A stretch of 60,119 nucleotides of DNA from a virus (taxonomy: Duplodnaviria; Caudoviricetes), in IMG/VR virus record IMGVR_UViG_3300025132_000038, positions 1 through 60,119 of that record, one strand, 5' to 3'. Each line of letters opens with the position of its first letter. The first letter of the stretch is position 1. Shown piece by piece: positions 17,701 to 56,987 of this stretch. A program made the translations under genes and the position numbers. A model generated the notes under the pieces. The model was not told the origin of the DNA and made no database searches. It worked only from the letters and a program-made list of their open reading frames with translations.

Positions 17701-20700
17701 TAAGAGCTTGATTTCGGAAGGGTTCTTCTTATAATACCTCTTAATTGGTTTTGCAAGTTCTTTATATCCTTAACTGCTAGTTTTTTATTCTTTATAGTGT
17801 TTCTAATGTCACTTATTTCTTTTTGAATAGTTGGGTTTGTTCTTATTTCTAAACTCCTATCTAAAGCCACTTGCATAGCCATTTGGGTGTCCACATTTTG
17901 TTTTTGGAACAACTCACTCTCTTTTAATAATCTTTGAGCTTCTGCCCTAACATCAGAATAAGTTTTAACTCGTCTTGCTCTTTTTTTACCCTCAGGTGTA
18001 CTGTAAGCATAATCATTTAGTTTCTTTTTAATTTTACTAAACAACCTTAAACCTTCAATGGCACCCCCTTCTATGTTAGTAAACTCCGTTGGTAGTGTAA
18101 CATTTTCATCCATCTTTATTCTCATAGCCTCATTTATATCTGTAGCTTTAAATCCTCTTGATTGTAAAACACTTTTAATAGATGCGTCTGATATACCTTG
18201 TTGCCTTCCTTTGTTTACTATATCAATAATGGAATCTGTAGAACTAAACATTACCTCAGGATTCTTTAATTGTATAAGCTGCTTGTCGGTAAGTTTTATT
18301 TCTTTACCAGAAAATATATCGGCTAGTGCTGTTCCTAAAAACTTATCAAGCGTCATGTTTTCAATTTCACTTGTAGTTAAATCTTTAGACATTTTAAACT
18401 GCGTTTTAATGTACGTCCACATTCCCTGCAGCCAATTTTTAAATTTAGAAAGTAAACTAGCATCTGCTATATCCACCCCTTTATTTGCTATCATAATAGC
18501 CATAGTTTCATTAACAGCCTTAGTTGCGTCACCATTAAACTTTTTTAATTGTCTTTTATAAAGCGCTGTTTGCTGAACTAATTCTGCCCCTTTTCTATAA
18601 ATTTGCTGACCCTTTTCCGTTGTTTGTAAATAATTAGTCCAGACATGACCAAACTCATGAATTGATGTATCAAAAAGTTGAGATTGAGTATTGTGAACTT
18701 CAGGGTTTATCCATATATCCCCATCTACAGTTACACCATAATACACCTGCCCATCTTTAGTGTATTGCCTTACATCATCTCTACTAATTACATTATTAAA
18801 AGCTTCTTGGGTAGAGCTTATATTAACACTTGGGAATGACTTATTCATAAATGCCAAGAGTTGTGTATTATTATTAATAGGGTCTCCCTCTGTTACTAAA
18901 CCACTTATAATTCGGGATATTTCAGATGGAGTAAGAGCACCATAAGTCGCAAAAGCTTGATTTAAAGCATCCACCAACATTTTCTCATCTCTAAAACTAA
19001 ACTGAGTTTCACCCATAACCTTTCTTCCTCTTGAGATAGTACTTTCTTTTTTAGCAACAGTAGGTTTTCTTCTACTTGCTTTACCTTTTTCTTCTAAAGC
19101 GGACCATGCTCTTTCAGCTTTCTTAGAAGTATAATTTTTATCTGACTTCAACGGTTGATTATAAGTTTCTTGAACATAATCATTGGCGCTTTCATAAAGT
19201 TGTTGACCCAACCCTAAGCCTTGTAAGGCGGGGTGTATTTCAGAAATAGTAACTGTTCCATTTTCCTTACCCATTTGAGCACCCTCTCTACCTGCTATCA
19301 TTTCTAACCTTCCTAATAACTGACCGTCTGCGTGCAAAAACACCCTCGCTTTATTGGCAGGTACTTGAAAAAAAGACCTTTGTTCTGGAGTTAAATTCTT
19401 TCCATCTATCACCGCGTAACTTACCTCAACGTCTCCATTTTTTATTCGAGTTATTAATTGCTCATCTATTTCAAACATACCCTTACCTTGGTCTCTAGTA
19501 TCCACATTAACTGTAGAAATACTTTCTGTAAACATCATGCCTCTTGCTCCCCTTCCTCCACCATCTACTATCTTGTTAACCAAATTAACAAAAGCGTTTG
19601 TTATACCACCTTCCACGGGAGCTCGTTTAATTTTGTTTTGTTGATTTTTAGATGCGCTTTTGAAATTTACAAAATCTATATCATTATCTATCTTCCCCTC
19701 GGTTTTAAAGTCTACTTTACTTTTAGTGTCCTCTTTTAAAGTAGCCTCTAAATCTATTGCACCCTGCATATCTGATTCAATTTCCGCTATACGCTCCGTA
19801 TTCTCTTTAAAAAGTTGCTGCTGAAAGGGTGTTAGTTTTCTATTATTCATATTTTTAGAAGCAACCTCAGCTAACAACCCATCTAATCTTTGTTGGTCTA
19901 GGTCGTTATTAGTATATTTTATCTTATCATTACGTGTGGCTTTGATAGGAGTAGGTATACTAGGTATCTCGGTTTCTACCCCAATCGTTTCCTCTTGGAC
20001 CGGAGTAGTTTGGCTTTTAGTGGTAGTTTCTTGTTGGGTGTCTCCTTTTCCCACTGTTGCGCCATCTGCGGTTTGTTTTTCCACATCCAGGCTCTTTGTT
20101 TTTGACTCTTGAATGGCATTTATTTTATCATTTAAAAGGGTTAATACTTTATCATCATTTCTTACATTTATATCTAACTCCTCTACTTCTACACTACTTA
20201 GTCTAGCTAATCTTCTCATAAAGGATTTTTTACTATACTTTTTTCCATCTATAGTATAGGAAGATTTTTTCATACCAGGGGCTTTCACGTCGATTAAAGC
20301 ATCCACATTTATTCCACCTTCAACTATTTCACCTGTACGGACCATTTCAGAAAGCTCGGCGTCTATCTCACTAATAGTTTTAGAGTTTATTTGTTTTAGG
20401 TTTGGAGTTCTACTTAAATCTTTTTTAGCACTTAACAGCTCCATCGCTCTAGCTATTTTTTTGTTAGAAGCATTTTTACCTAAAAGTTCTTTAGCGTTTC
20501 TACGGTTTCCTACGTTTTCTTGAATTTGTTGATTTTGTTCATCACTAATCTTATTTAGATTATTCATGTTAGTTGACCATTGAGATATTCTTGAGTCACT
20601 AACATTTTCATTAGCCATATAATTAAAATCTAATAAGTTGTTCGCAATATCAGTATTACTGTTATTAACTTTGTCCATAAACATATTTACGGCCATATGA

Positions 20701-43597: not shown

Positions 43598-45840
43598 TGC
43601 ATTATTTCACTTGTTAGTCCCTGGTTATTATACCTTGCAAAGTTAACACTTATTTTTGATTGTTTTTGATTTGGAGTATAAAGATGCTTTTGACTAGCCA
43701 TTATAGCAAGCCCTGAACTAATAGTAGCGTCATACGCAGTTCTATTGTTAATATCAAACTTAGCCCAATCTTCTAAAGTTTTACTAAAATACATACTTCC
43801 CATTATATCGCTATCTCTATAAGTTCCTTGTAAATCTAAACCCACATGTTTTTCTATATAAGATTCTACTGCAGCCGCATGAGCTTGTTTAACATCCTCG
43901 GAACTATTAGGAATACCTCCTAACTCTTTTTCTGTTTTAGAAAGTTTCAGGAGTTTTTTATCCGGCCTGTTTATAGAAAAAGCCCTATAACCTCTATTTT
44001 TTAAATGATAAAGTAATCTAGGTTTATTATTCTCCACTAAGATAGGCATACCATAAAACACACAAGCCATTAACACTTCCTCAAAAAATATTTCTGCAGT
44101 TTGTGGTCTTGCTATATATTCTAAAAAAAATTCATTACTCGGAACTTCATCCATGTTAAACTTAGTTAAACCATGTAAAGCGCCATTAGACCCTTTCCCA
44201 CCCACTGTTCCTGATATATCATAAGAGTCACAACCAAAACAACCCAAGTGTTCGTTTCCGGGATATTTGCCCCCTCTACTTTCTATTACGTTATTTTGTA
44301 GTTTTTTTGGAAGTAACCAACTAACTAAAAACCTACCCCTAGAATCCGGACTCCATATTACTTTACTATCTTTAACACCATTAGCCCAACTAAAACTTCC
44401 CCTAGTTAAATGTCGACCTTGAATTAATGAATCGTTATAATCTATTTGTTGGTAAATTTTTGTTAAATTAAATAAAGAAGATTTACTCTCATCTCTAAAA
44501 GCGTGTGACTCTGTTCTGGGAAATTGTCTATAAAACTCATTTAAGGCATCTGCATCCTGCTTTAAAGAATCTACTTCCGCCTTCCAATAATCTACTGCTC
44601 CTTTAGTAATGTACTCACCATCTACACCCATTAACTTCTCCTTAGGAGTATTAAAAACCGGCATACCATACCTATCTATAAAACCCTCCATGTTCCACTC
44701 CATCGGAATAAATAAAGAATACATGCCACTTTTTGTTTGACCATTTTCATTTCTAGTCATCACATTAGAGTCTTCAAATAATTTTTTAAAATTTCCACCC
44801 CCTTTCGCTAAAGCATTAGAAGTAGAACCCATTAAACATTTACCAATAATTCTACTCCCTAATCGTAAACAAGTTTTAGTTACCCTCCAATTATTTAATA
44901 TATTATTAGGTTTTATCCATTTACCACTTTCATCATGTACTAACAATAATAATTTTTCCCCATCATAAGAGTTGTCATCTGTATTTTTCCAATCTATCGT
45001 AGTATCTAATCCATATAACTCATCATTAGCAACGTCATACATGTTTTTTTTAGTAATTTTTGACGCAGGTATTCTAAAAGCTAACTCTGTCTTAGGTTTG
45101 TCCATTCCATCTTGTATGGGTTTAAAAAAGAAAGGAAGTCTACTTGATATGGGAACTACCTTGTCGGTAAACATTTTTTTTGCATCCGAACCTGTTTTAG
45201 ATAATATACCTACTCTTGAGTCTTTTGCTAATGTTCCTACATTTACACACTCCGAAGACCCCATATAAGAAAACCCTGAACGTCTTATTTTTAAATAAGT
45301 CATTCCAAAACTTCTTTTGTCAGCACGACAAGCTTCCCAAAATAAAAAAAATATTCTATTAGCCTCTCGGTAGTCAGGGTACCCCACATCAATATTAGTC
45401 CATTGTAAATACATATAGTGAGAACCTGTTATATAAGTAGGTTGACCTTTATTCATAAACCAATGTCCATCTTCTCTTTTATCAAACTCCTGCTCTATAT
45501 AATCTACCCAATGACTTTTAAATTCTTTGGGAGCATCATTCCATTGAAATATAGAGTTAATCTTAGACAAAGATTTAGGCAACTCTTTTCTTTCCCAATA
45601 CTGTTCTTTTTTATCCTCACTCCGCATGTAACATTCTTTGGGAGCTAGAGGTAATCCTATTATAAGGCCTGAAATATTTATTATTTCACCAATCCTTCCG
45701 GTTTTAGAAATGTTTACAAAATTATATTTTTCATTATATCCATACAACCATGTTCCTCCTCGATTTTTATTAGACAAAACTCGTTGAGGAATATAGTTAT
45801 CTAAAACCTTATATAAATTATTTTGAACGTCTTTCTGCAA
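43594..45840 (-). CDS. terL: Terminase large subunit
   Basis: KIRRSGFSY ATPase motif, VHDESGKW Walker B, GCDSYD nuclease, ENN, YDATISSG. Confidence 0.9.
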   Translation of the reverse strand: MQKDVQNNLYKVLDNYIPQRVLSNKNRGGTWLYGYNEKYNFVNISKTGRIGEIINISGLIIGLPLAPKECYMRSEDKKEQYWERKELPKSLSKINSIFQWNDAPKEFKSHWVDYIEQEFDKREDGHWFMNKGQPTYITGSHYMYLQWTNIDVGYPDYREANRIFFLFWEACRADKRSFGMTYLKIRRSGFSYMGSSECVNVGTLAKDSRVGILSKTGSDAKKMFTDKVVPISSRLPFFFKPIQDGMDKPKTELAFRIPASKITKKNMYDVANDELYGLDTTIDWKNTDDNSYDGEKLLLLVHDESGKWIKPNNILNNWRVTKTCLRLGSRIIGKCLMGSTSNALAKGGGNFKKLFEDSNVMTRNENGQTKSGMYSLFIPMEWNMEGFIDRYGMPVFNTPKEKLMGVDGEYITKGAVDYWKAEVDSLKQDADALNEFYRQFPRTESHAFRDESKSSLFNLTKIYQQIDYNDSLIQGRHLTRGSFSWANGVKDSKVIWSPDSRGRFLVSWLLPKKLQNNVIESRGGKYPGNEHLGCFGCDSYDISGTVGGKGSNGALHGLTKFNMDEVPSNEFFLEYIARPQTAEIFFEEVLMACVFYGMPILVENNKPRLLYHLKNRGYRAFSINRPDKKLLKLSKTEKELGGIPNSSEDVKQAHAAAVESYIEKHVGLDLQGTYRDSDIMGSMYFSKTLEDWAKFDINNRTAYDATISSGLAIMASQKHLYTPNQKQSKISVNFARYNNQGLTSEIMQ

Positions 45841-46096
45841 AACCTTGTTTAGTATCTATTTGTTTAACGTTATCTAACTCTCTTAAACTTTCTTCCTCGC
45901 CATCTATTCGGTTTAAAATTTCAAACGCATCAAAGATTGCAAGTTTTTTAGTAGCGGCCGCATTTTTTAATCTATCTGCTGCCAACTCGTCTTCGGGGTC
46001 AGGTTTAATTATTTCTTCTTTTGCAACTTTTATTAATTGCCTAACTGCTTTTCTTCCGGCTTCTATAATTTGTTTTTTTAATTCTTTTGAATCCAT
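45818..46096 (-). CDS. Putative terminase small subunit
   Basis: Helical 92 aa overlapping the terL start; ADRLKNAAATKKLAIFDAFEIL. Confidence 0.55.
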   Translation of the reverse strand: MDSKELKKQIIEAGRKAVRQLIKVAKEEIIKPDPEDELAADRLKNAAATKKLAIFDAFEILNRIDGEEESLRELDNVKQIDTKQGFAERRSK

Positions 46097-46114
46097 CTAT
46101 TTTTTCAATAAAAT

Positions 46115-46612
46115 TTATTTCTTATAATACACACCATCTCTACCCATTGATTTTAAAAACATTACCTGAACCAATCTTGACTCCTCTCCTTTACCAAAAT
46201 TATCATATAAAGTTCTAGAGTGTTTATGGTAAGAATCAAATGCTACCAACCTATTGTATTTCATTCGAACATCACAACTTTTCGTTTCATCTTCATTATA
46301 AAAAGTTGTACCTGCATTTTCAGGAAACGTTTTATTTAAGTATAACAAAATAGTTTTATCACCCATCATTTCATCCGAATGGATATAATTTGGTTCTTCT
46401 TGTTGAAAAGGGGATTGTCTCACAAAATTATATTTAACTTGGTAATCAGGAAATAACATTAAAACAATTTTCTCTAACTCATCATTGTTTCTCACCTGTA
46501 TTCCTTTAAACACATTATCACCATCTTCTACGTCTACAAAACCTCCTTTTAATATATTTTTTACATATTGAGAAGGTTTTTTTATTATATCATCTAAAAT
46601 AATTAGTTTCAT
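46115..46612 (-). CDS. 2OG-Fe(II) oxygenase
   Basis: IHSD, LLYLN, GT.FY, YNRLV.FD...HS, R..QV.F. Confidence 0.8.
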   Translation of the reverse strand: MKLIILDDIIKKPSQYVKNILKGGFVDVEDGDNVFKGIQVRNNDELEKIVLMLFPDYQVKYNFVRQSPFQQEEPNYIHSDEMMGDKTILLYLNKTFPENAGTTFYNEDETKSCDVRMKYNRLVAFDSYHKHSRTLYDNFGKGEESRLVQVMFLKSMGRDGVYYKK

Positions 46613-47172
46613 AATTTAATAGTTATTTGATGGTCAAACATTCTATACAACTTTTTATCCTCTACTCTAAACTCATATTCGCTATCAGGAACAAAAGAAA
46701 CTTTATCACCTGGGCGTAAACCTTGAGATTTTAAATACTTATTTACGTAAACCATTTCCCCCATTAAAGGTTCATTATTAGTGTTTTTAAAAATAACACT
46801 TTCTGTTTTAGGAATAGGTTTAACAAAACAATACCTACCGTAGGTTTTCCATTCATCATTTTGTTTGTATAAAAAAAACTGCTCCATATCAACTAAAAAA
46901 CAGTTATCTTTTAAAAAGCTTTTACCACTTTTCTGTCTACCTCTCATATCATAATAATACTTAAAAACGTTGTGGTGAACCAGTAGTATATCTCCCTTTT
47001 TAATATCTCCCTTATAATTTAACGGAACTTCAATTACTTCGGCTTCTCGATTAGAAAAACTAACATCCTCTTGTGAGGTGCTAATAATAATATCCTTACC
47101 TCCAATATTTTTAGAATTATTATACCTTCTGTTTTTTACAGGAGATACTATAAATTGTGTAGGGGACTTCAT
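46609..47172 (-). CDS. GroES-like fold protein (two GroES-like repeats)
   Basis: FIVSP...A.VI.VP...IKKGD.LLVHHNVF; second FVKP...G....GL.PGDKV.F. Confidence 0.55.
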   Translation of the reverse strand: MKSPTQFIVSPVKNRRYNNSKNIGGKDIIISTSQEDVSFSNREAEVIEVPLNYKGDIKKGDILLVHHNVFKYYYDMRGRQKSGKSFLKDNCFLVDMEQFFLYKQNDEWKTYGRYCFVKPIPKTESVIFKNTNNEPLMGEMVYVNKYLKSQGLRPGDKVSFVPDSEYEFRVEDKKLYRMFDHQITIKL

Positions 47173-47396
47173 TATATATTTATATTATATTCTAAAGCGA
47201 CAGGTACAGTGCTATTAAACTCCTTCCATTTTAAAATTACATCCCCCTCTCTAATATAAATCTTTATAGATTGAGATTCCTCATCTTGTTTAATAAGTTC
47301 TATAGTGTAATTTCCACCTAAGACAGATTGTCCCACTATGTAGTGCATAGCTCCCGACTTGTAATCAGGGCCTACAGATATTTTTCTGATTTTCAT
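47172..47396 (-). CDS. Conserved small hypothetical protein
   Basis: IRKISVG.DYK..AMHY.VGQ, WKEFN...EY. Confidence 0.7.
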   Translation of the reverse strand: MKIRKISVGPDYKSGAMHYIVGQSVLGGNYTIELIKQDEESQSIKIYIREGDVILKWKEFNSTVPVALEYNINI

Positions 47397-47407
47397 TTTA
47401 TTTTATT

Positions 47408-47686
47408 TTATACCCAAGCAGAAAGCTGCACCCTTCTCCATGAGTCAGGACCATAGCATACATATAAATAACCACTAGTTATCATAAAAGTTCCCATTAC
47501 TCCCGGAGAAGTAGGAGTAGCCGGAGCTAGAAGACCATTTGAACCATTAAAAAACAAATAAAGCGTTAACTCTGATATTTTTATATTTTTGGTTGCATTA
47601 GAATTAGTAGAATCACTAGTTAAAAATGTGTCTTGACTACTTATATCTGAATAACTAATTGTGGAGTATGTACTAATTTTTGCCAT
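47408..47686 (-). CDS. Short tail-fibre-like structural protein
   Basis: MAKISTY...D.FL.SD...TKN head motif; P.TPTSPG..G...YLYVC...W.R..L..W tip motif. Confidence 0.55.
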   Translation of the reverse strand: MAKISTYSTISYSDISSQDTFLTSDSTNSNATKNIKISELTLYLFFNGSNGLLAPATPTSPGVMGTFMITSGYLYVCYGPDSWRRVQLSAWV

Positions 47687-47703
47687 TTCTACTTATTTTT
47701 TAA

Positions 47704-48024
47704 TTATTTTGCTTTAAATTGCGCCTCTCTTTGTTTTTTTACTTCCTCTATATCTTTATCAGATAAGAAGTCATTCTTTTGTTTTTGAGTAATTTTTCCT
47801 GTTTCTAAACTAATAGAAGCGTCTTTACCATATTTAGTAATTAACACTCTTTCTTTATCTATTAACTTAGTTTTAATTATACCAAGTACTTTTTTTACTT
47901 GCTCTTGTTCTAACACGTTGTCTGCTAATTTTATTTTTGCAGAGTTCATATCTTGAATTACTTGCTTAATCTCATTTAACTCATCTGTAGTTAAATAATC
48001 TTCTACTTTTTCTTTTTTTGACAT
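47704..48024 (-). CDS. Coiled-coil protein (possible fibre chaperone)
   Basis: L..EL..I...KYG...ISL.TG.I. Confidence 0.55.
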   Translation of the reverse strand: MSKKEKVEDYLTTDELNEIKQVIQDMNSAKIKLADNVLEQEQVKKVLGIIKTKLIDKERVLITKYGKDASISLETGKITQKQKNDFLSDKDIEEVKKQREAQFKAK

Positions 48025-48048
48025 TTGATTAAATTTTTAATTATTACA

Positions 48049-48056
48049 CAAAGATA
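48049..48056 (-). promoter_or_regulatory. Bacteroidota -7 element TATCTTTG
   Basis: Intergenic, upstream of 48024. Confidence 0.55.
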
Positions 48057-48065
48057 AGTATTTTT

Positions 48066-48449
48066 TTACTTACCTTTTCCTTTTACCTTTTCGATGGACC
48101 TTCCTCCGAAGTAGCTCCCCACGATTGTTATCAAAACTAATTGTAATAAATCCGTCCATTTTTCTTCGACATGAAAGTCTAAGGTTCCTGCATCAATGAA
48201 AATTAACAACATAGTGCAGGCTAACATAAATATAAGAGTCATTGGCCTTACATTTTTACTTAACCAACTATCTGATTGCATGTCGGCGGTCCAACGAGCA
48301 GTTACATTTTTTTGCAAATCACTTTCAGAATCAAGAAGCATTTTCTTCATTTCATTCTTTAGCTTCATTTTTTCTTCTTTGGTTGTAACAACCTCATCTA
48401 TAATATTACCTGCATCACCAAGTATTTTACTTAACGCTTTTTTAATCAT
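48066..48449 (-). CDS. Holin (3TM/GTA-type holin-like)
   Basis: RW.ADM.SDSWLSKNVRP, two TM segments, YFGGRS.EK. Confidence 0.8.
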   Translation of the reverse strand: MIKKALSKILGDAGNIIDEVVTTKEEKMKLKNEMKKMLLDSESDLQKNVTARWTADMQSDSWLSKNVRPMTLIFMLACTMLLIFIDAGTLDFHVEEKWTDLLQLVLITIVGSYFGGRSIEKVKGKGK

Positions 48450-48925
48450 ACTTTTTTATATTTAGTTTTTCCACCTGAACCCTTATAAGCCTCTAACAAC
48501 TGACACCTATTACCCTTTGGGTTATAAGAAATGTGTATCCAAGCGTAATCAAATTCATTTATCATTTGGTCAAAAGGAATGTCATTCTCTAACACAAAAT
48601 CCCATATTATCTTATTATCTACTATTCCTTTATTGTTCCTGTATTTTAAATCAGCAGCTTGACCTTTACAATGCTGACTTGTAGGAACGTAAATACCATC
48701 TTTTATTTTATGTGCACCTCCTAGTGCTTTATTTAACTCCTCTGACCTAAATCCTGAGTTTACCCCTAACATCCCTATACCATCGCGTATGGGTTGTAAA
48801 GTGAACTCACACAATGCTTTCATCTGCTCTATATGATGAAACTCTGGGGAATTATCAATCCCATGTCTTTTTGCAACGTTACTTTTTAAAAACTCAGAGA
48901 GAGTAAAATTTTTTGATAACCTCAT
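48446..48925 (-). CDS. Endolysin, peptidase M15 family
   Basis: LSKNFTLSEF, SGFRS..LN, SQH..GQAAD, WIHISY. Confidence 0.9.
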   Translation of the reverse strand: MRLSKNFTLSEFLKSNVAKRHGIDNSPEFHHIEQMKALCEFTLQPIRDGIGMLGVNSGFRSEELNKALGGAHKIKDGIYVPTSQHCKGQAADLKYRNNKGIVDNKIIWDFVLENDIPFDQMINEFDYAWIHISYNPKGNRCQLLEAYKGSGGKTKYKKV

Positions 48926-48927
48926 TA

Positions 48928-49290
48928 TTACATAAATTTCTTTAATACTAATTCTTCAACTTGCTTTTTAGCTTCCTTAATACACAACTGAAAAGTTAAA
49001 TCAGCTTCATATTTATGCACCACTTCCTTATTATAAAAAACAATAACAGTTGGTACGGAAAGTATTTTATACTCAGCAACCATATTAGGGCAATTCTCTA
49101 TGTCAATAATGTAAGTTTTTACATCCTTAAACTTAGATAAATCTACCATATTTTCTTTGTTCCAATCCGCATAAAACTCAATAACAACAATGTCTTCTTT
49201 TAAAACCGCATCTAAATCTGATTCTTGTAATGTCATTTGACCAAATGACACCATACTGATAAATAAAAAGAAGTAGAATAAATTTTTCAT
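48928..49290 (-). CDS. Secreted thioredoxin-fold protein lacking CxxC
   Basis: Signal peptide; VVIEFYADWN in place of WCxxC; YKILSVPTVIVF cis-Pro motif. Confidence 0.7.
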   Translation of the reverse strand: MKNLFYFFLFISMVSFGQMTLQESDLDAVLKEDIVVIEFYADWNKENMVDLSKFKDVKTYIIDIENCPNMVAEYKILSVPTVIVFYNKEVVHKYEADLTFQLCIKEAKKQVEELVLKKFM

Positions 49291-49577
49291 TATTTTTGTA
49301 TTACCTCATACAAACGTTCATCCATAGTGTCTAACTTCTTTTCTATAGCATCTAATGATTCTTTGTTAGATAAAACCGTTTGTCTTATTAATTCATTTTT
49401 CATATTTATTTCTCCCGCACTAGGATAGCCGTCAAATTTTTCAACCTTAACTTCTATCGCATTTACCTGACCAACTAAGTTATAATAAGTTCCCACTAAT
49501 CCCACTACCATTAAAATGAAACTTATTAAGAACTTTAAATCAGTACTTACTTTTGTGTTATTACTTATTTTAGCCAT
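49290..49577 (-). CDS. Single-TM coiled-coil membrane protein
   Basis: FLISFILMVVGLVGTYY then heptad repeats. Confidence 0.65.
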   Translation of the reverse strand: MAKISNNTKVSTDLKFLISFILMVVGLVGTYYNLVGQVNAIEVKVEKFDGYPSAGEINMKNELIRQTVLSNKESLDAIEKKLDTMDERLYEVIQK

Positions 49578-50143
49578 TTTACTTTACCATTTTGGATATA
49601 AATACTTTCAGGCTTTCTTATAACCTGACCCTTTAAATTGTAAATTAAATTAGTGTTTTCAGAATTTTTAATTATTTCTATGATTTCTGTATCACAAGGC
49701 ATACCTGTGTCACAATCAACATATTCTTCTATATATATCCACTCTGTTTCTGTTATATACAAAGTGTCTAAAATATCTTCATAAATATAAAGTGTATCTA
49801 TTTCTTCTATTACTTGTATTTCAATAATAGTATCTGTTAAATTAATATACTCTATTACATCAATATATAACGTATCACAACCAACCTCGTCTAACAAACA
49901 ATCAAATGTAGAAGTAGGAATTTGACCATCTTGCTCATCACTTGCATCTACACAATCGTCCCATCCATCTGCTATCCATGTTGTTTGCACACATCCATTA
50001 GGAGAATATTGAGTCCAATTAGACTCATCATCACCACAATAAAAACCTTGTGCCTCCGCACACTCTAAACACGCATCATTATATTCTTGTGAATACACTA
50101 ATCCGCTAAACAAAGTAAATAATAGTAATATGTATTTTTTCAT
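49565..50143 (-). CDS. Secreted acidic protein with an LDL-receptor class A-like motif and a T9SS-CTD-like tail
   Basis: Signal peptide; CV...WIADGWDDCVDASDE; DTLY repeats; IYNLKGQ...IYIQNGKV. Confidence 0.65.
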   Translation of the reverse strand: MKKYILLLFTLFSGLVYSQEYNDACLECAEAQGFYCGDDESNWTQYSPNGCVQTTWIADGWDDCVDASDEQDGQIPTSTFDCLLDEVGCDTLYIDVIEYINLTDTIIEIQVIEEIDTLYIYEDILDTLYITETEWIYIEEYVDCDTGMPCDTEIIEIIKNSENTNLIYNLKGQVIRKPESIYIQNGKVKWLK

Positions 50144-50145
50144 AC

Positions 50146-51162
50146 TTAGAAGAATAAATAGTTAAACCCAAACTTTAATTCATATACAGGCTTCATCCAA
50201 TACCTCTGGTGAGTTCCTTCTACAAAGATTCCTAAATGCTTGGTAATACGTGAACCAAACACCACTCCTGCATCCCATTCTGCCCAATCACTGTTCTCAA
50301 CTCCATATTCAAAAGAATAATCATCAAGCCCATAATGCAAAGGTAGTAAATTATACCATACATGAATCCATAGTTTTGGTGACCATTTATAGTATGAAAC
50401 ACCTAAAACAGCACTAATTTCATTTTGAGTGCCTAACTTTTCTAATTCTTGCTCATTAAAAGATGCAACTGCACCTCCAAAATAATGTTTATAAAACTCA
50501 TCATTTGATGTCGCTAACAACTCATCCCCACTAAACCAATTCCAATCTCCATTTACAAATTCTCTACTATATCCAAAATCAGCCGCTAATTCTACAAAGG
50601 TACTTTCCCCTGGAGTCCAAAAATCCTCAATAGGGTTAACCCCATACACAGGGTGATTCCTAGCAATAATTCCTGCCGTAAAATCCCATGCACCTACCTG
50701 AACACGAAACCTAGTATCGAAGGAGGTGTATTCTAAATTTACTCTTTGATTGTCTTTGTATTGTAATTTAGTAACCGTTTTATTACCGAGATAACGTAAC
50801 CAAAAATTTGCATTATTAAATGTTTCACCGCGATTACGTATAAAAGAATAATTAAGGAGATACTCCCACCCGTTAGCATTACCAACAGTAACATTGTCTG
50901 AAACAGTTCTTTCAGTACCGTAGTACCATGTTTTAACTTTATATTCATAATCAAATCTTGCTATTTTTCGGATTCCGAAAGTTAAATTATAATCATAGGG
51001 GTTGATTTCAGTAACATCTTCATAACCCCTATCTATAGCTATGTAATTCTCCCTTTCCACCATAGACGTTCCCATAGTAAAAGAAGTATATACTGTAGAA
51101 TACTTAAAGAACTGACCAAAGGAAAGTAAAGGAAGTAATAATAATATAAATAATTTCTTCAT
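50146..51162 (-). CDS. Putative outer-membrane beta-barrel protein
   Basis: Signal peptide; alternating aromatic beta strands; C-terminal KFGFNYLFF beta-signal-like end. Confidence 0.65.
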   Translation of the reverse strand: MKKLFILLLLPLLSFGQFFKYSTVYTSFTMGTSMVERENYIAIDRGYEDVTEINPYDYNLTFGIRKIARFDYEYKVKTWYYGTERTVSDNVTVGNANGWEYLLNYSFIRNRGETFNNANFWLRYLGNKTVTKLQYKDNQRVNLEYTSFDTRFRVQVGAWDFTAGIIARNHPVYGVNPIEDFWTPGESTFVELAADFGYSREFVNGDWNWFSGDELLATSNDEFYKHYFGGAVASFNEQELEKLGTQNEISAVLGVSYYKWSPKLWIHVWYNLLPLHYGLDDYSFEYGVENSDWAEWDAGVVFGSRITKHLGIFVEGTHQRYWMKPVYELKFGFNYLFF

Positions 51163-51287
51163 CTTCCTTGTCCTCTATATTGTTTCACATAATTAGTAGC
51201 TCCCTTGGAAAACGTAGACTTGCTCTTGCAGTGCCTTTTGTGTTTTGTTTTTTTGTTTGGTTGAAATCGAAATGCGTTTTTTGCCAT
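51159..51287 (-). CDS. Small basic protein, 42 aa, ending YRGQGR (not in ORF track)
   Basis: MAKNAFRFQPNKKTKHKRHCKSKS...KQYRGQGR; ATGA overlap with the downstream gene. Confidence 0.65.
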   Translation of the reverse strand: MAKNAFRFQPNKKTKHKRHCKSKSTFSKGATNYVKQYRGQGR

Positions 51288-51343
51288 GACCTATCACATA
51301 TTTTATGTTAACATTTTTTATAGTACTTGAAATCGTCCACATA

Positions 51344-51910
51344 TTAATTGTAAGCTACATATAACCGAGCTCCATTATTAGGAGGGGTAGAGCTCCCCGT
51401 TGCCGAGCTAAACACTTTAACTACTTGAACCGGAACAAGAGGTTGAGCACAATCATAATTTTGTCCGTAATTACCTACAGCTCTTATCCTACCCGTTTCA
51501 GAAGCATTATCTTCTTCATTACAAGCTCCTAAAATAAAAATATCATTCTTATGACCCGGGCCGCTCAAAAGTACTACACCGGGGTCTGGAATATTTTGAT
51601 AAATAATAACAGGCTTCCCTGCAGCAGCACTTATATTGCTTGTAAGCGTAAGTTCATTTGATTTCACTTTCGTTATAATACTTCTATTCCCTACCGCAGC
51701 ACCATCAACTCCAACCATACAAACATCACCTACTTTAATACCTAACTCCTTAAAGTTAAGAGTAGCGGTTGTTACGGTTTTTAGTATCGCGTCATAAGCG
51801 CTTGGCTGAAATGTCGTCACATAATTTCTTGGAGACGGATTAAAAGCATTGTTAAAATTGTCCCCTGAAATATCAAAGGTTGCTTTTGGATAAAACTGTT
51901 GATTCGGCAT
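51344..51910 (-). CDS. Putative virion structural protein
   Basis: NF...GIKVGD...IITKV.S..LTL domain; PVQV.KV C-terminal motif. Confidence 0.6.
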   Translation of the reverse strand: MPNQQFYPKATFDISGDNFNNAFNPSPRNYVTTFQPSAYDAILKTVTTATLNFKELGIKVGDVCMVGVDGAAVGNRSIITKVKSNELTLTSNISAAAGKPVIIYQNIPDPGVVLLSGPGHKNDIFILGACNEEDNASETGRIRAVGNYGQNYDCAQPLVPVQVVKVFSSATGSSTPPNNGARLYVAYN

Positions 51911-51924
51911 AACTTTTTTTTTAT

Positions 51925-52158
51925 TTATTTATTATAAGGGAAAATTCTGTTTAGGGAATCCTTTCGTTTACCACATCCACAATCTTTTCCTGTTGCTTTT
52001 GCTACCGCATCTACAGCTTTTTTAATACCTGTAGCTTTGGTAAATTTTTCTATTGTATCTCCCAACCCACGACTTTTCTTGTTTGATGGAACATATACAT
52101 TCTTTTTGTCATCATACCCCCTTGGTGAATGACCCATTAGTTGACTGCGGGTAGCCAT
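51925..52158 (-). CDS. Conserved small phage protein with CGC motif
   Basis: SRGLGDTIEK.TKATGIKK.V...DCGC.KRK..LN..FPY. Confidence 0.75.
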   Translation of the reverse strand: MATRSQLMGHSPRGYDDKKNVYVPSNKKSRGLGDTIEKFTKATGIKKAVDAVAKATGKDCGCGKRKDSLNRIFPYNK

Positions 52159-52161
52159 AAT

Positions 52162-52344
52162 TTAACAATTACAGTTTTTGCAGTCTTTAGCCATTTTAAA
52201 TCCTAGATTTAAAATTACCATTTTTAAACATTTTTTAGAAACATCTCCTTTTATTTCTAAAAGAGTTATTCCTCCTATTCTCCATTCTATAGCAATCTTA
52301 TCCCATTGTCTAGCATTGCTCGAAAAATAATTTATAAACTTCAT
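52162..52344 (-). CDS. Small hypothetical protein
   Basis: 60 aa; QWDK..I..R.GGIT. Confidence 0.65.
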   Translation of the reverse strand: MKFINYFSSNARQWDKIAIEWRIGGITLLEIKGDVSKKCLKMVILNLGFKMAKDCKNCNC

Positions 52345-52360
52345 ATTATATTACTTTTAG

Positions 52361-52855
52361 TTATTTTTTCATTCTCCATTTTTTCAAACCCTTTCTGTGA
52401 GTTTTAGGAACACCTGTGTGTTTTTTCTTTTTCACTCTATGTCCTTTATGAACATCAACTTGTTTTTCTGTTTGAAGATGCTTCCTGTTGTATTTAACAA
52501 CGTTTTTTTGTTTAGCATTTCCAATTTTTCTTTTCTGTTTAACTACCCTTCTTTTTCCTATAGCCCCTTCTTGTCTTCTGCTTACCTCAACTTTTTTCTC
52601 CCCACCTTTTGTTTTAACAACTTTTCTTTTACGTCCTGTTATAGGATTTTTATATCTTCTAGTAATAGTTGTTCTTCCCAGAACATCGGTTTTTTTAGTT
52701 TGTTTGTATACAGGTTTAACAGCTTTTTTAACAGCTTTCTTAACGGCTTGACCCGCTTTTTTTACTCCGGCACGCGCTTTTCTAATCGCGTTACCAACCT
52801 TACTACCTCCCGGCTTTCTTCTAAAGGATATTTTTCGTGTTCCGTATTTAGGCAT
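52361..52855 (-). CDS. Highly basic histone-H1/protamine-like protein
   Basis: About 37% K+R by hand count; AVKK repeats. Confidence 0.7.
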   Translation of the reverse strand: MPKYGTRKISFRRKPGGSKVGNAIRKARAGVKKAGQAVKKAVKKAVKPVYKQTKKTDVLGRTTITRRYKNPITGRKRKVVKTKGGEKKVEVSRRQEGAIGKRRVVKQKRKIGNAKQKNVVKYNRKHLQTEKQVDVHKGHRVKKKKHTGVPKTHRKGLKKWRMKK

Positions 52856-52863
52856 AATTTTAA

Positions 52864-53064
52864 TTATTTAGTACTACATCCAAAATTTTTGGCATAATTC
52901 GCCATCTTAACTACACTAGAGGAATACTTTTTAGTATTCTTCATTACAGCGCTAGCGGCAGAACAGGCATCTTTAAACCCGTTCCGTTTAGCCCAATCTG
53001 TAAATTTCCCCTCATTCTTTTCTTTAATTTGAGGAAATTTCTTTGTCCTTCCTTTAGTCGCCAT
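52864..53064 (-). CDS. Small basic protein
   Basis: GKFT.WAK..G...A...K.ANYAKN. Confidence 0.7.
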   Translation of the reverse strand: MATKGRTKKFPQIKEKNEGKFTDWAKRNGFKDACSAASAVMKNTKKYSSSVVKMANYAKNFGCSTK

Positions 53065-53318
53065 TATGATTTTCTCATTATTCCCGTTCTATTACTACCT
53101 GTTTGAGTTTTAAACCCATGGTGTAATTTAGCTTTTACGCTTTTAGGATAGTGCTTATCTTCTTTCATTGAATGATTTCCCTCATAAGGATGTCCATATC
53201 TTGATTTAGACATTCCTTTAGACTCATTTCTTCTTGATTTGTAAGATTGTGAGTGAGGGCCTTTATGCTTCATACCTAAAGACTCATCCAATCTGTCGTT
53301 ATAACCTTGTTTTTTCAT
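53064..53318 (-). CDS. Small basic protein
   Basis: MKKQGYNDRLDESLG...QS.KSRR.ESKG. Confidence 0.7.
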   Translation of the reverse strand: MKKQGYNDRLDESLGMKHKGPHSQSYKSRRNESKGMSKSRYGHPYEGNHSMKEDKHYPKSVKAKLHHGFKTQTGSNRTGIMRKS

Positions 53319-53551: not shown

Positions 53552-53980
53552 CTACGCTTTGTTATTATTCTTTTTCTTATCTTTCTTGTTTAAATTCTTA
53601 ACAGTATCTCTTACTGTTCTAATAGCCTTACCAAACTTACCTTTTTTAAGGCTAGAAATAGCTTCCTTACCACCACTATATATTTTATAAGCGTTAGTCT
53701 CTTTACCTTTTTTAGCTTTATCATGAATTTTTTTAATAGTTTTTCCAACTTTAGTCTTTTTGTACTTATCCACTTTTGCTTTTATTTTATCAGCAGCTTG
53801 CTCTACTCCCGTTTTACCGGTTGTCTCTTTTATATACTTTCTTGTGGCCTTTCTATTAGTTCTAGCCGTTTTCCTGTCTTCTTTAGACATTAGGTATTTA
53901 CCTTTTTTAGCCTTTCTTTCGGACCTTTTTTCAAATCGTGCTTCTTTTTTAGCACGCATTTTATCTCCAAATTTACTCAT
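53552..53980 (-). CDS. Highly basic K/R-rich protein
   Basis: 142 aa, K/R-dominated. Confidence 0.7.
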   Translation of the reverse strand: MSKFGDKMRAKKEARFEKRSERKAKKGKYLMSKEDRKTARTNRKATRKYIKETTGKTGVEQAADKIKAKVDKYKKTKVGKTIKKIHDKAKKGKETNAYKIYSGGKEAISSLKKGKFGKAIRTVRDTVKNLNKKDKKKNNNKA

Positions 53981-53992
53981 AACTTATATTTT

Positions 53993-54325
53993 TTACTTTA
54001 TTGTTGGTGAAGTGTTTAATTTTATCTGCGCTAACAACCTCTGCTTCTCTTGTCTATTCATAGGTTTTTTCCAATTCTTCATTCCTGGTAAAGTTTCATC
54101 TTTTATTTTTCTTTTTACCACTTTCTCTTTTCTTTTGTCCCACGTCCCTTTCTTTTCCATTCTAGCTTTCCGCTTAAGATTACGATTACGTTTCTTATCA
54201 CTAATATCGTAATACTCTAACCTTTTTGTAACCCTAGCTGTTTTTTTAGATTTTTTCTTTTGTTCGTTTAAAATCTTTTTAGTATTAGCTTGTTTTCTTT
54301 CCTTTACTTTGTTTACTATAGCCAT
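53993..54325 (-). CDS. Highly basic K/R-rich protein
   Basis: 110 aa; K.ARV.KR.E and DISD.K shared with 58083-58475. Confidence 0.7.
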   Translation of the reverse strand: MAIVNKVKERKQANTKKILNEQKKKSKKTARVTKRLEYYDISDKKRNRNLKRKARMEKKGTWDKRKEKVVKRKIKDETLPGMKNWKKPMNRQEKQRLLAQIKLNTSPTIK

Positions 54326-55154: not shown

Positions 55155-55377
55155 TAGCTACTACTTCATTATTAAGTAACATAGTATGTCCTGACTGTTG
55201 GTCATAATATATCTCGTCTCCCTTTTTTATTATCTCCACATCTGTTCCCACATTTAATACTTTACCTTTTCTGTATCGAAGATTAGATGTTTCTTCTCCT
55301 GATAAAAGAAGTCCTGACTTTGTAGTTACTTCTTCATCTATGGGTTTTATTATAATATATGTTCCTATTGCTTGCAT
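55120..55377 (-). CDS. groES: Co-chaperonin GroES (Cpn10)
   Basis: IIIKP..E..TKSGLLL...GKV..VG..V..IK.GD.I.Y. Confidence 0.9.
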   Translation of the reverse strand: MQAIGTYIIIKPIDEEVTTKSGLLLSGEETSNLRYRKGKVLNVGTDVEIIKKGDEIYYDQQSGHTMLLNNEVVAIIRQMNVVVVL

Positions 55378-56987
55378 GTTGTATCGTATGAACGTGCCAT
55401 TGTAATAATAGCGTTAGTACTTAGTATTGTATTGGCAACTGATATAGCGTTACTTAAAGCGCTTACAGTAACTTTGGTAGGGTCTATTACCCCTAAATCA
55501 ATCATGTTTCCTTTTTTTTCAGTAACTACATTGTATCCTTCGCCTTTTTCAAGGTTAGATGATAAATAAACATCATTTATATTTAAGCCTGCATTTTCAA
55601 GAATTTGTTTTAATGGAGATAATAAAGATTCTAATAAAATTGCGTAAGCAATTTTTTCGGCATCAGATTTTCCACTTTTTAATTCTGAAGAAATATTCAT
55701 CAAAGCTACCCCACTACCTGGAAGTATCCCGTCTGACAAAGCAGAACGAACCGCACATACAGCATCATCTACTCTATCATATAACTCTTTTTGTTCTAAA
55801 TCAGTATTACCACCTACATATATAACTCCTACTCCGCCTGTCAATGAGGCTATACGAGATAATATAAACTCTCTATCAGCTTTTGTTTTAGCTCTTTTAT
55901 GTGCATCTTTTAATTCCCCTACTCTTACATTTAATAATTCTTGATGTTCCTCATCTTTTGGTGAACAAAGGACGACAGTGGAGTCTCTCCCAACTATCAC
56001 CTTGGACGCTCTCCCTAAATCGGAGAAGTTTATAATACTCAAATCGTCCCCTGTTTTCTCAGAAAAATACGTTGCACCTACTGACATTGCTATGTCTTGC
56101 ATAAGCTCATGTGTTTTCCAACCAAATGACGGCGGTGGTATAATACACACCTTCAATCCTCTTTTCATAACATTAGCCGCTAATGTTTGTATAACATTTT
56201 GTGAACAAGGAGCTATAATAAGAAGTTTTTTGCTTTCTTGAATAATGGGTTTTAGAATATTCTCTATGTTTAATACGTTATTTATTTCAGCATCAGATAC
56301 TAAAATGTTAACATTTTCTAATATACACTCATCTTTCTTTTGATTATTAACAAATAGATTACTTGAATAACCTCTTTCTATTTTTATTCCTTCAGTTGTT
56401 TCTGAATACGTCTCCGAGTTTTGTGACTTCTCCACAGTCACTATTCCGTTTTCTCCAACCGTATTATATGTATCTGAAATAATACTACCAACAAACTCAT
56501 CATTGTTAGCTGAAATAGTGGCAACATTATTTAAAGTACTCTTTTCCACTTTTACACTATCTTTTTTTAACCTTTCAATAATATCAATAGTATAACTAGA
56601 TAAAGCACGTATAACTTCAGTTACACTTACATTAGGGTTTTTACTTAATAGTCTTGTGGTGTTCTTTACTATAGATTCAGTTAAAACAATAGCTGTGGTA
56701 GTTCCATCACCTGCTAAAGTAGCTGTTCTTTCCGCAGCTTGTTTCATTATTCTAACTGCTAAATTTTCAACAGGGTCAAGAAGCTCAACCGATTTAGCAA
56801 CCGTAACTCCATCTTTAGTTACTGTTATACTAGCGGTATGTTCTGGTGATTCAATAAGAACTGTGTTACCTCGGGGACCGAGAGTACTTTTTACTGCGTT
56901 AGCAATTTTAGTAATTCCTTTGATTAACTTTACTCTACCTTCTGTACCGAAGTCGAGCTCCTTGGGGATATATCCTGTATTATTCAT
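55365..56987 (-). CDS. groEL: Chaperonin GroEL (Cpn60)
   Basis: TLGPRG, TKDGVTVAK, AGDGTTTA, ATISAN, GI.PG.G, GVIDP.KV. Confidence 0.95.
   Translation of the reverse strand: MNNTGYIPKELDFGTEGRVKLIKGITKIANAVKSTLGPRGNTVLIESPEHTASITVTKDGVTVAKSVELLDPVENLAVRIMKQAAERTATLAGDGTTTAIVLTESIVKNTTRLLSKNPNVSVTEVIRALSSYTIDIIERLKKDSVKVEKSTLNNVATISANNDEFVGSIISDTYNTVGENGIVTVEKSQNSETYSETTEGIKIERGYSSNLFVNNQKKDECILENVNILVSDAEINNVLNIENILKPIIQESKKLLIIAPCSQNVIQTLAANVMKRGLKVCIIPPPSFGWKTHELMQDIAMSVGATYFSEKTGDDLSIINFSDLGRASKVIVGRDSTVVLCSPKDEEHQELLNVRVGELKDAHKRAKTKADREFILSRIASLTGGVGVIYVGGNTDLEQKELYDRVDDAVCAVRSALSDGILPGSGVALMNISSELKSGKSDAEKIAYAILLESLLSPLKQILENAGLNINDVYLSSNLEKGEGYNVVTEKKGNMIDLGVIDPTKVTVSALSNAISVANTILSTNAIITMARSYDTTCKQ

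Follow-up and report, generated by a model that had tools for sequence, protein, structure and literature searches.

The breach of the outer membrane by phages of Bacteroidota is poorly known. The closest described systems are the spanins. In two-component spanins such as lambda Rz/Rz1, an N-in/C-out coiled-coil protein of the lysis cassette (the i-spanin) adjoins the gene of an exported lipoprotein partner (the o-spanin), and unimolecular spanins of the T1 gp11 type combine an N-terminal lipoprotein signal with a C-terminal transmembrane (TM) segment. According to a 2025 survey, Bacteroidetes phages "exclusively use" unimolecular spanins (PMC12596118), and flavobacterial phage genomes are described as often showing only an endolysin, with or without a holin (PMC8776804). 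The cationic peptide phiKT gp28, a "disruptin," substitutes for spanins and illustrates that spanin-less phages employ other outer-membrane disruptors (bioRxiv 10.1101/515445). Here, we describe a six-gene cassette at positions 48066-51162 (minus strand) of the viral record IMGVR_UViG_3300025132_000038, in which a predicted outer-membrane barrel, a TM coiled-coil protein (TMCC), and a thioredoxin-like protein (TRX) are encoded together with an endolysin and a holin. The whole record, 60,119 bases in length and estimated to be 99% complete, was analyzed and is referred to as the window.

The locus resembles each of the described systems in part. As in two-component spanins, a predicted N-in/C-out protein with an N-terminal TM segment and a periplasmic coiled coil (49290-49577) is encoded in a lysis cassette beside an exported partner, and an outer-membrane step would presumably follow the action of the holin and the endolysin. 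However, the window holds no candidate o-spanin lipoprotein; the partners are a soluble thioredoxin fold and an integral barrel, the components number three or four, and the coiled coil is short. Unimolecular spanins share with this locus the host phylum and the position in the lysis region, but no open reading frame (ORF) here has an N-terminal lipoprotein signal together with a C-terminal TM segment. In contrast to phiKT gp28, the module consists of exported folded proteins, although a 42-amino-acid (aa) protein encoded beside it (51159-51287) is superficially of the gp28 kind. Lambda Lom, the outer-membrane proteins (OMPs) of huge phages, and the cyanophage family PF24653 are also phage-encoded, Sec-exported barrels bound for the host outer membrane. 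They differ in that no sequence match links them to the barrel described here, which belongs to a 60-kb genome, has fixed TMCC and TRX partners, and lies in lysis cassettes. Because the window has no lipoprotein candidate, the module is not a spanin by membership and falls into neither class, although it may work in a spanin-like way. We regard it as a set of envelope proteins of the lysis cassette, and a new class is a real possibility. A full-text literature search found neither a barrel-based spanin equivalent nor this triad, in line with the initial annotation, which had called the system undescribed; the OMP lists of a 2026 preprint may include the barrel family.

Conservation of the barrel, TMCC, and TRX genes

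All six ORFs of the cassette were confirmed on the minus strand. From the barrel gene to the holin gene, they encode the barrel (338 aa, 50146-51162), an acidic LDL-A-like secreted protein (192 aa, 49565-50143), TMCC (95 aa, 49290-49577), TRX (120 aa, 48928-49290), the endolysin (159 aa, 48446-48925), and the holin (127 aa, 48066-48449). The genes are tightly coupled, with successive junctions of +2, -13, -1, +2, and -4 nt, where negative values are overlaps.

Conservation was assessed with the barrel as the seed. A metagenome protein collection contained 406 barrel homologues at E ≤ 1e-3, and the 120 listed were 63-100% identical. In IMG/VR, 100 of 101 candidate stretches were relatives, and 80 loci were kept (loci of this and the further sets are numbered L below). 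The LDL-A-like gene followed the barrel gene in every locus with at least 800 nt downstream (75/75), at a distance of 1-4 nt in 62 of 71 loci. The TMCC gene lay directly upstream of the TRX gene in 64 of 64 barrel-seeded loci, and both genes were present in 51 of the 56 loci with at least 4 kb downstream.

With TRX as the seed, relatives accounted for 443 of the 598 stretches, and the 80 best were retained. TMCC adjoined TRX in 77 of 79 loci, the remaining two having less than 140 nt upstream. A barrel match was present in 58 of the 61 loci with at least 5 kb upstream, and 3 of these 58 matches were C-terminal fragments only. In L128 (7503-7691), L134, and L152, the open part of the barrel gene upstream of TMCC-TRX is limited to a C-terminal piece of 62-82 aa, and the rest of the barrel gene seems to be broken or miscalled. 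The barrel-seeded and TRX-seeded sets share many contigs, so the counts are not independent.

Distant relatives of the barrel were collected by a profile search of 1.84 billion representatives, which gave 303 matches at E ≤ 1e-3 and 42 at E ≤ 1e-30. No Pfam family above noise was found in the 22 distant relatives scanned, most of which were full-length, and the ten that were looked up all came from metagenomic contigs of at most 27 kb. Two distant relatives seeded 21 more viral loci, with a barrel identity to the window of 29-37%. The LDL-A-like gene was found in none of these 21 loci, and TMCC and TRX were found in 15 of them. The remaining six either stop within about 820 nt past the barrel gene or cut the barrel gene. 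Three distant loci came from contigs of 130-216 kb.

The triad is retained at barrel identities as low as about 29% and occurs in no fewer than five gene orders. The order barrel-LDL-A-like-TMCC-TRX-M15 endolysin-holin is that of the window's clade and of contigs of 28.6-29.9 kb. The other orders are TMCC-TRX-barrel-M15 endolysin-holin (L083-L086), barrel-TMCC-TRX-endolysin with PG_binding_1 and Amidase_2 (L087 and L088), barrel-TMCC-TRX-holin (L149), and barrel-lipoprotein...TMCC-TRX...holin (L089-L103, e.g., L100). As judged from these sequence comparisons, the genes occur together across hundreds of related contigs far more often than chance would allow, and the conserved unit is the triad of barrel, TMCC, and CXXC-less TRX. 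Co-conservation of the cassette, on which the initial annotation depended, thus holds for the triad but not for all six genes as a unit.

The six-gene order of the window also occurs in a second lineage with the portal family phrog_33693 (L045, L050, L053, L054, L058, L059, and L063). These contigs are uniformly near 29 kb, which suggests either small complete genomes or exchange of the module between lineages. Among GenBank phages, blastn and tblastn gave no match for the region, the barrel, the LDL-A-like protein, TRX, or one TMCC family member, and two pattern-limited scans of bacterial and archaeal genomes gave no relative. Within the searches made, the module was seen only in viral and metagenomic contigs, where it is widespread, with the 406 barrel homologues in metagenomes and at least 443 TRX relatives in viral contigs.

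As read from the sequence, the three products expected to leave the cytoplasm with a cleaved signal (barrel, LDL-A-like protein, and TRX) start with a basic segment followed by a hydrophobic stretch that ends in G/S-Q. The N-terminal export region is variable in the family alignments, and the start of the mature part is conserved. Gln would be the first mature position in all three, in keeping with the "Q-rule" for substrates of signal peptidase I in Bacteroidetes. These features are consistent with the three Sec-type signal peptides proposed at the outset.

Structure of the 338-aa barrel

The barrel protein matched no family in Pfam, PHROG, or NCBIfam, and a profile search of PDB sequences gave no match at E ≤ 10. 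It was modeled with AlphaFold2 (AF2) from a 28-sequence alignment that included relatives of 30-43% identity. The model, with a mean pLDDT of 71.6 and a pTM of 0.66, has twelve long antiparallel strands and a helix-containing insert of about 70 residues (177-243). Residues 68-95 are poorly modeled. Since aromatic and polar residues alternate in this segment, the barrel may be 14-stranded instead of 12-stranded.

Fold searches with the model pointed to outer-membrane barrels. The top VIA-align matches were Tsx (Z 11.5, 182 residues, rmsd 4.3), the EstA barrel (11.1), and OpcA (10.6), followed by LpxR (10.4), KdgM (10.1), NalP (10.1), NanC (9.6), and FapF (8.5). In the whole-model count, 12 chains reached Z ≥ 8, and the top ones listed were outer-membrane barrels. 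The same was true of the top of the best 15 Foldseek matches listed, a lower one of which was mitochondrial VDAC1; only two matches reached E ≤ 0.001, and the TM-scores were 0.3-0.5. The likeness to Tsx, NanC/KdgM, LpxR, and autotransporter beta-domains (Z 9.6-11.5 over 150-190 residues, rmsd 4.3-5.7; FapF Z 8.5) comes with an identity of only 7-11%, no shared family, and no reported counterpart of the insert 177-243. The fold matches reflect a generic 12-strand barrel likeness and are no proof of family membership, and the fold shared with bacterial barrels shows no shared function.

AF2, Foldseek, and VIA-align agree with the first proposal that 50146-51162 encodes a barrel. The protein combines a signal peptide, closed antiparallel strands, and a C-terminal aromatic end, as outer-membrane barrels do. 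The C-terminus reads FGFNYLFF, so the beta-signal-like FNYLFF end noted earlier is present, and it is conserved in the family. Many of the basic residues that alternate along the strands are conserved (R65, K66, R69, R109, R123, K132, R151, and R168). In BFVD, one viral barrel relative was found (A0A516LKJ4, 31% identity, TM 0.67), together with generic phage porin-like proteins; at least one viral UniProt entry thus carries a relative of the barrel.

Two known families were considered and rejected. The named language-model neighbors of the barrel were autotransporter, DUF6850, the cyanophage OMP-like family PF24653, and Phenol_MetA_deg, with scores of 0.94-0.95. For PF24653, this neighborhood (0.94) was the sole link, and no Pfam match was obtained at E ≤ 0.1. 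PorP/SprF (PF11751) had no match in the window at E ≤ 10 and none in the Pfam scans. The initial annotation had also considered a phage-encoded outer-membrane barrel unusual. In itself it is not, as 1,603 barrel OMPs are reported in 1,303 huge phages (bioRxiv 10.64898/2026.10.24.761521).

TMCC and TRX proteins

The 95-aa TMCC protein starts with a short basic segment, followed by a single TM segment (residues ~16-35) and a helical, heptad-like C-terminal part, all conserved in the family. It is predicted to be a bitopic inner-membrane protein with an N-in/C-out topology, a periplasmic coiled coil, and an i-spanin-like shape. The coiled-coil call comes from sequence inspection and alignments. 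The protein also matched phrog_20984, a family of unknown function, weakly (E 3e-4).

The 120-aa TRX protein matched PF00085 (E 8.3e-7; 29.4 bits versus a cut-off of 23.5), and its family profile matched PDB thioredoxins at E 8e-12. It shares the fold and the cis-Pro loop with the thioredoxin family, from which it differs in having a signal peptide, in always being paired with a TMCC gene, and in the replacement of CXXC by W-N-x-x-N (W-N-K-E-N in the window). CXXC was absent from the 60 close and 9 distant TRX members read, which have W-N-x-x-N or different non-Cys residues at this site. The C-terminal end is conserved, with Phe last or next to last. The protein is probably a periplasmic thioredoxin fold incapable of redox chemistry. 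It had been described as a Cys-less thioredoxin: the fold stands, whereas "Cys-less" does not, as the mature part has two Cys and what is missing is CXXC.

Longer TMCC forms occur in a distant clade (L089:8964-9632, L096:8045-8644, L097:8758-9336, L100:8470-9048, and L103:8010-8639). They have a cytoplasmic N-terminal extension of about 100 residues with two Leu/Gly-rich motif repeats, which we take to resemble the c-di-GMP-binding motif of MshEN/T2SSE_N. No T2SSE_N Pfam match was obtained for these forms at E ≤ 0.01.

Acidic LDL-A-like protein

The 192-aa protein is predicted to be secreted, with a mature pI of 4.05, 39 D/E versus 7 K/R, and nine Cys. Family members consist of a conserved Cys-rich N-terminal module with an LDL-A-type acidic cluster, an acidic D/E/T/I/V/Y repeat, a conserved Cys pair, and a conserved C-terminal part of about 40 residues forming a small beta domain. 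The repeat is highly variable in length, and the proteins range from 148 to 310 aa. Ldl_recept_a (PF00057) matched the window's protein below the cut-off (E 0.01; 16.4 bits versus 24.1), as it did 22 of 26 family members (best E, 7e-4). PDB matches of the family profile were almost all LDL-A modules, with weak E values of 0.005-1. The AF2 model had a pLDDT of 56.5, with moderate confidence at both ends and values near 30 in the repeat.

The LDL-A likeness is weak but consistent at the sequence level. The T9SS half of the original description as an LDL-A/T9SS-like protein was not borne out: PF18962 had no match in the window at E ≤ 10, and none of the 26 family members matched Por_Secre_tail. 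The only T9SS pointer for the protein was a weak language-model lead (0.75-0.78). A PorP/SprF-like barrel with a CTD cargo was also considered and rejected, with PF18962 and PF11751 both unmatched in the window at E ≤ 10. A complex prediction for barrel residues 18-338 and residues 19-192 of the acidic protein scored 0.00 in two runs, the controls not being folded, and it speaks neither for nor against contact. Because the LDL-A-like gene is absent from all 21 distant loci while TMCC-TRX persist there, the protein is a clade-specific addition beside the barrel gene and not part of the core.

In the clade with barrels of 420-436 aa, the slot after the barrel gene is taken by a lipoprotein-like protein of about 190-207 aa with a hydrophobic N-terminus ending in F-S-C and no family (L089:7786-8409, L097:7376-7969, and L100:7301-7876). 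Inside or beside the module of this clade are also an H-NOX protein (L089:8413-8964; PF07700, E 2e-45) and proteins with a mechanosensitive-channel beta-domain (E 1e-6) and a POPDC/cNMP-binding domain (E 2e-14) at L091:5113-5538 and L096:9091-9747, respectively.

Association with lysis genes

The endolysin and holin calls of the initial annotation were upheld by family matches above the cut-offs. The endolysin matched Peptidase_M15_3 (PF08291, E 3.1e-11; 43.8 bits versus 23.2) and phrog_894 (E 1.7e-33). It has no signal sequence and is best explained as a cytoplasmic M15 enzyme. The holin matched phrog_3427 (E 9.5e-30) and, barely above the cut-off, PF11351 (GTA_holin_3TM; 25.1 bits versus 24.8).

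The module is frequently found near such genes. Among the 70 TRX-seeded loci with at least 1.5 kb downstream, an M15 endolysin lay within 700 nt downstream in 27 and a phrog_3427-type holin within 1.5 kb downstream in 39; one or the other lay directly downstream in 39 and was present anywhere in the locus in 50. These counts are lower bounds, as only the two lysis families (M15 and phrog_3427) were searched. Other endolysin types near the module (phrog_3000/33083 and Amidase_2) were not counted.

No lipobox-type ORF was found in 45800-52400 by a crude regular-expression scan. Across the whole window, the same kind of scan gave only four matches, which were judged to be spurious (ORFs of 31-58 aa). 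Three have a TTG start and lie on the strand opposite to the structural genes, and the fourth is a minus-strand ORF inside the replication module, which is encoded on the plus strand. The absence of a recognizable lipoprotein o-spanin, as first noted, is thus supported by these crude scans, which gave no plausible ORF.

The nearest GenBank record by terminase, the uncultured podovirus MW202828 (75.6%), contains none of the four exported proteins. In its syntenic slot, a 207-aa protein is encoded between a holin and an M15 endolysin. The 207-aa protein (L081, 4506-5129) has an N-terminal anchor, a beta-rich C-terminus, and no family, and it is a candidate outer-membrane lysis factor of another kind.

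Proposed role in the outer-membrane step of lysis

The genes are coupled, their products carry export signals and envelope-type folds, and the triad is linked across loci and frequently adjoins endolysin or holin genes; for these reasons, a trans-envelope complex is proposed. We tentatively favor the view that the triad, with the acidic protein where present, is an accessory for the outer-membrane lysis step, spanin-like in action but anchored by a barrel. The complex itself, its timing, and its effect on the outer membrane are inferred.

In such a scheme, the barrel would be inserted by BAM as the outer-membrane anchor, and the 95-aa protein would serve as the inner-membrane anchor. The three core proteins would accumulate late in infection and bridge the inner to the outer membrane, with the thioredoxin fold as the adaptor. 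The intact cell wall would restrain this bridge. Once the holin frees the endolysin and the wall is degraded, the bridge could destabilize or fuse the outer membrane. The acidic LDL-A-like partner, whose module is of a calcium-binding type, might bind the divalent cations that bridge lipopolysaccharide or dock on the barrel, which is speculation. Bacteroidota sort their lipoproteins largely to the cell surface, and for such a host a barrel would be a fitting substitute for a lipoprotein anchor.

The tight coupling of the module to the endolysin and holin genes within the window speaks for this role, and several points weigh against it. The periplasmic part of the 95-aa protein, about 55-60 residues, is too short to span the periplasm alone, and a barrel has no obvious counterpart to the membrane-fusing action attributed to lipid-anchored o-spanins. 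Known spanins are highly diverse, whereas the barrel is strongly conserved, with 63-93% identity versus 25-50% for the other cassette genes in the more distant loci. Spanins are also called diverse in the abstract of a paper on spanin diversity. The linkage has gaps as well: 5 of 56 close loci have no TMCC or TRX within 4-6 kb downstream, in 3 of 61 TRX-seeded loci no barrel was detected in about 7-8 kb of upstream sequence or in up to 8 kb of sequence downstream, and in many loci tail-fiber-like or structural genes separate the barrel pair from TMCC-TRX by up to about 3 kb. In addition, the distant clade with the lipoprotein-like gene may have a conventional outer-membrane lipoprotein partner.

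A broader claim is possible and is held with somewhat less confidence: that barrel, TMCC, and TRX constitute a third kind of phage outer-membrane disruption machine, a trans-envelope complex of three components anchored by a barrel, which replaces lipoprotein spanins in many uncultured marine Bacteroidota phages and takes on clade-specific additions (the acidic LDL-A-like protein here, a lipoprotein elsewhere). If the triad does act in the outer-membrane step, it would be a new class of lysis component and an example of the thioredoxin fold used outside redox chemistry, and it could serve as a marker when lysis regions of marine phages are annotated.

Alternative functions

The initial annotation had left the choice between spanin replacement and surface remodeling or superinfection exclusion undecided. 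Because the triad repeatedly adjoins endolysin or holin genes in different gene orders, the lysis reading is favored, and remodeling is kept as the leading rival, though an unlikely one. In that rival, the barrel and the displayed acidic protein would mask or block the receptor or injection route for competing phages, and TMCC and TRX would assist barrel assembly or be unrelated. Phages commonly encode barrels for the outer membrane, and lambda Lom reportedly blocks the receptor LamB (bioRxiv 10.64898/2026.10.24.761521). The unusually strong constraint on the barrel would suit this reading, as would its conserved ~70-residue insert, which topology counting places on the outer face of the model. 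The acidic partner, with its ligand-binding-type module and variable repeat (148-310 aa), resembles a surface stalk. However, the barrel remains linked to TMCC and TRX across deep divergence, including in loci that lack the LDL-A-like protein, and the module lies inside or beside lysis cassettes in several gene orders. PADLOC gave no match except a weak holin hit, and the two pattern-limited scans gave no homologue in bacterial genomes and hence none in a prophage.

Control of lysis timing is less likely still. The triad would then be a trans-envelope sensor feeding into the holin, as an antiholin or as a relay resembling lysis inhibition. TMCC would take the role of T4 RI, a small N-terminally anchored periplasmic protein, and its 95 aa do have the size and topology of a membrane-anchored periplasmic regulator. 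The holin gene directly follows the TRX gene in some loci (L149 and L180). The distant clade adds the cytoplasmic TMCC extension, with repeats that presumably resemble a c-di-GMP motif, and the neighboring H-NOX (PF07700, E 2e-45) and cNMP-binding proteins. The extension is absent from the window's own clade, however, the long TMCC forms gave no T2SSE_N match, as noted above, and a regulator has no obvious need for an outer-membrane barrel conserved at 65-90% identity. Were the module an exclusion or timing device, it would still be a widespread, undescribed trans-envelope system of abundant ocean viruses.

The least probable alternative is that the locus holds two unrelated units, the barrel being an auxiliary uptake or efflux channel with its clade partner and TMCC-TRX a separate lysis or assembly factor: the best folds do include specific channels (Tsx, Z 11.5; KdgM, 10.1; NanC, 9.6), many conserved basic residues alternate along the strands, and the two pairs can lie up to about 3 kb apart, but fold matches with TM-scores of 0.3-0.5 are generic for 12-stranded barrels, and barrel and TMCC-TRX remain linked despite at least five rearrangements and at barrel identities as low as about 29%.

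Genome context and neighboring genes

The plus strand of the window carries a replication module (a Sak-like annealing protein, an exonuclease, a primase/helicase, and a helicase), and the minus strand carries a long structural and late block with the portal, the large terminase, and virion proteins. At 46% identity, the terminase resembles those of "elemo"-group Flavobacterium podophages, and it also matches Cellulophaga, Tenacibaculum, and Maribacter phages. Because these relatives are flavobacterial phages, the host is treated as a presumed marine member of Flavobacteriia. No integrase family was found among the 42 larger ORFs (PHROGs, E ≤ 1e-4) or the 16 ORFs around the cassette, in agreement with the first description of a phage with no recognizable integrase. 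The cassette is best explained as the lysis region of a virulent marine flavobacterial podophage.

A 41-nt gap (48025-48065) follows the holin gene and contains TATCTTTG at 48049-48056 on the minus strand. This element presumably fits the Bacteroidetes -7 promoter motif, the window-wide frequency of which was no higher than in shuffled sequences. Scans for sigma-70 promoters, terminators, and the Bacteroidetes -7 motif gave results not above those of shuffles.

At the other end of the cassette, the stop of the gene for the 42-aa protein (51159-51287, minus strand) overlaps the start of the barrel gene by 4 nt. The protein is very basic (pI 11.2; 13 K/R and no D/E) and has no signal peptide. 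Its gene is translationally coupled to the barrel gene, which it precedes in 10 of the 80 related loci by tblastn, and its membership in the module is uncertain. The protein could act on the outer membrane as a cationic peptide in the manner of phiKT gp28, or it could be an ordinary basic phage protein. Small basic proteins of 48-50 aa are also encoded within the module of the distant clade (L089, L097, and L100).

Several other features of the minus strand were recorded. A giant ORF of 2,868 aa without a PHROG match (14781-23387) lies at the end of the structural block. A GroES-like protein (46609-47172; phrog_13932, E 1.6e-23) is encoded about 8 kb from a GroEL-type chaperonin (55365-56987; phrog_5725, E 4e-130), which lies further upstream. 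Between 51925 and 54659 is a run of small, extremely K/R-rich proteins with almost no family matches (e.g., 52361-52855, 53064-53318, 53552-53980, and 53993-54325), which may be DNA-condensing or internal virion proteins.

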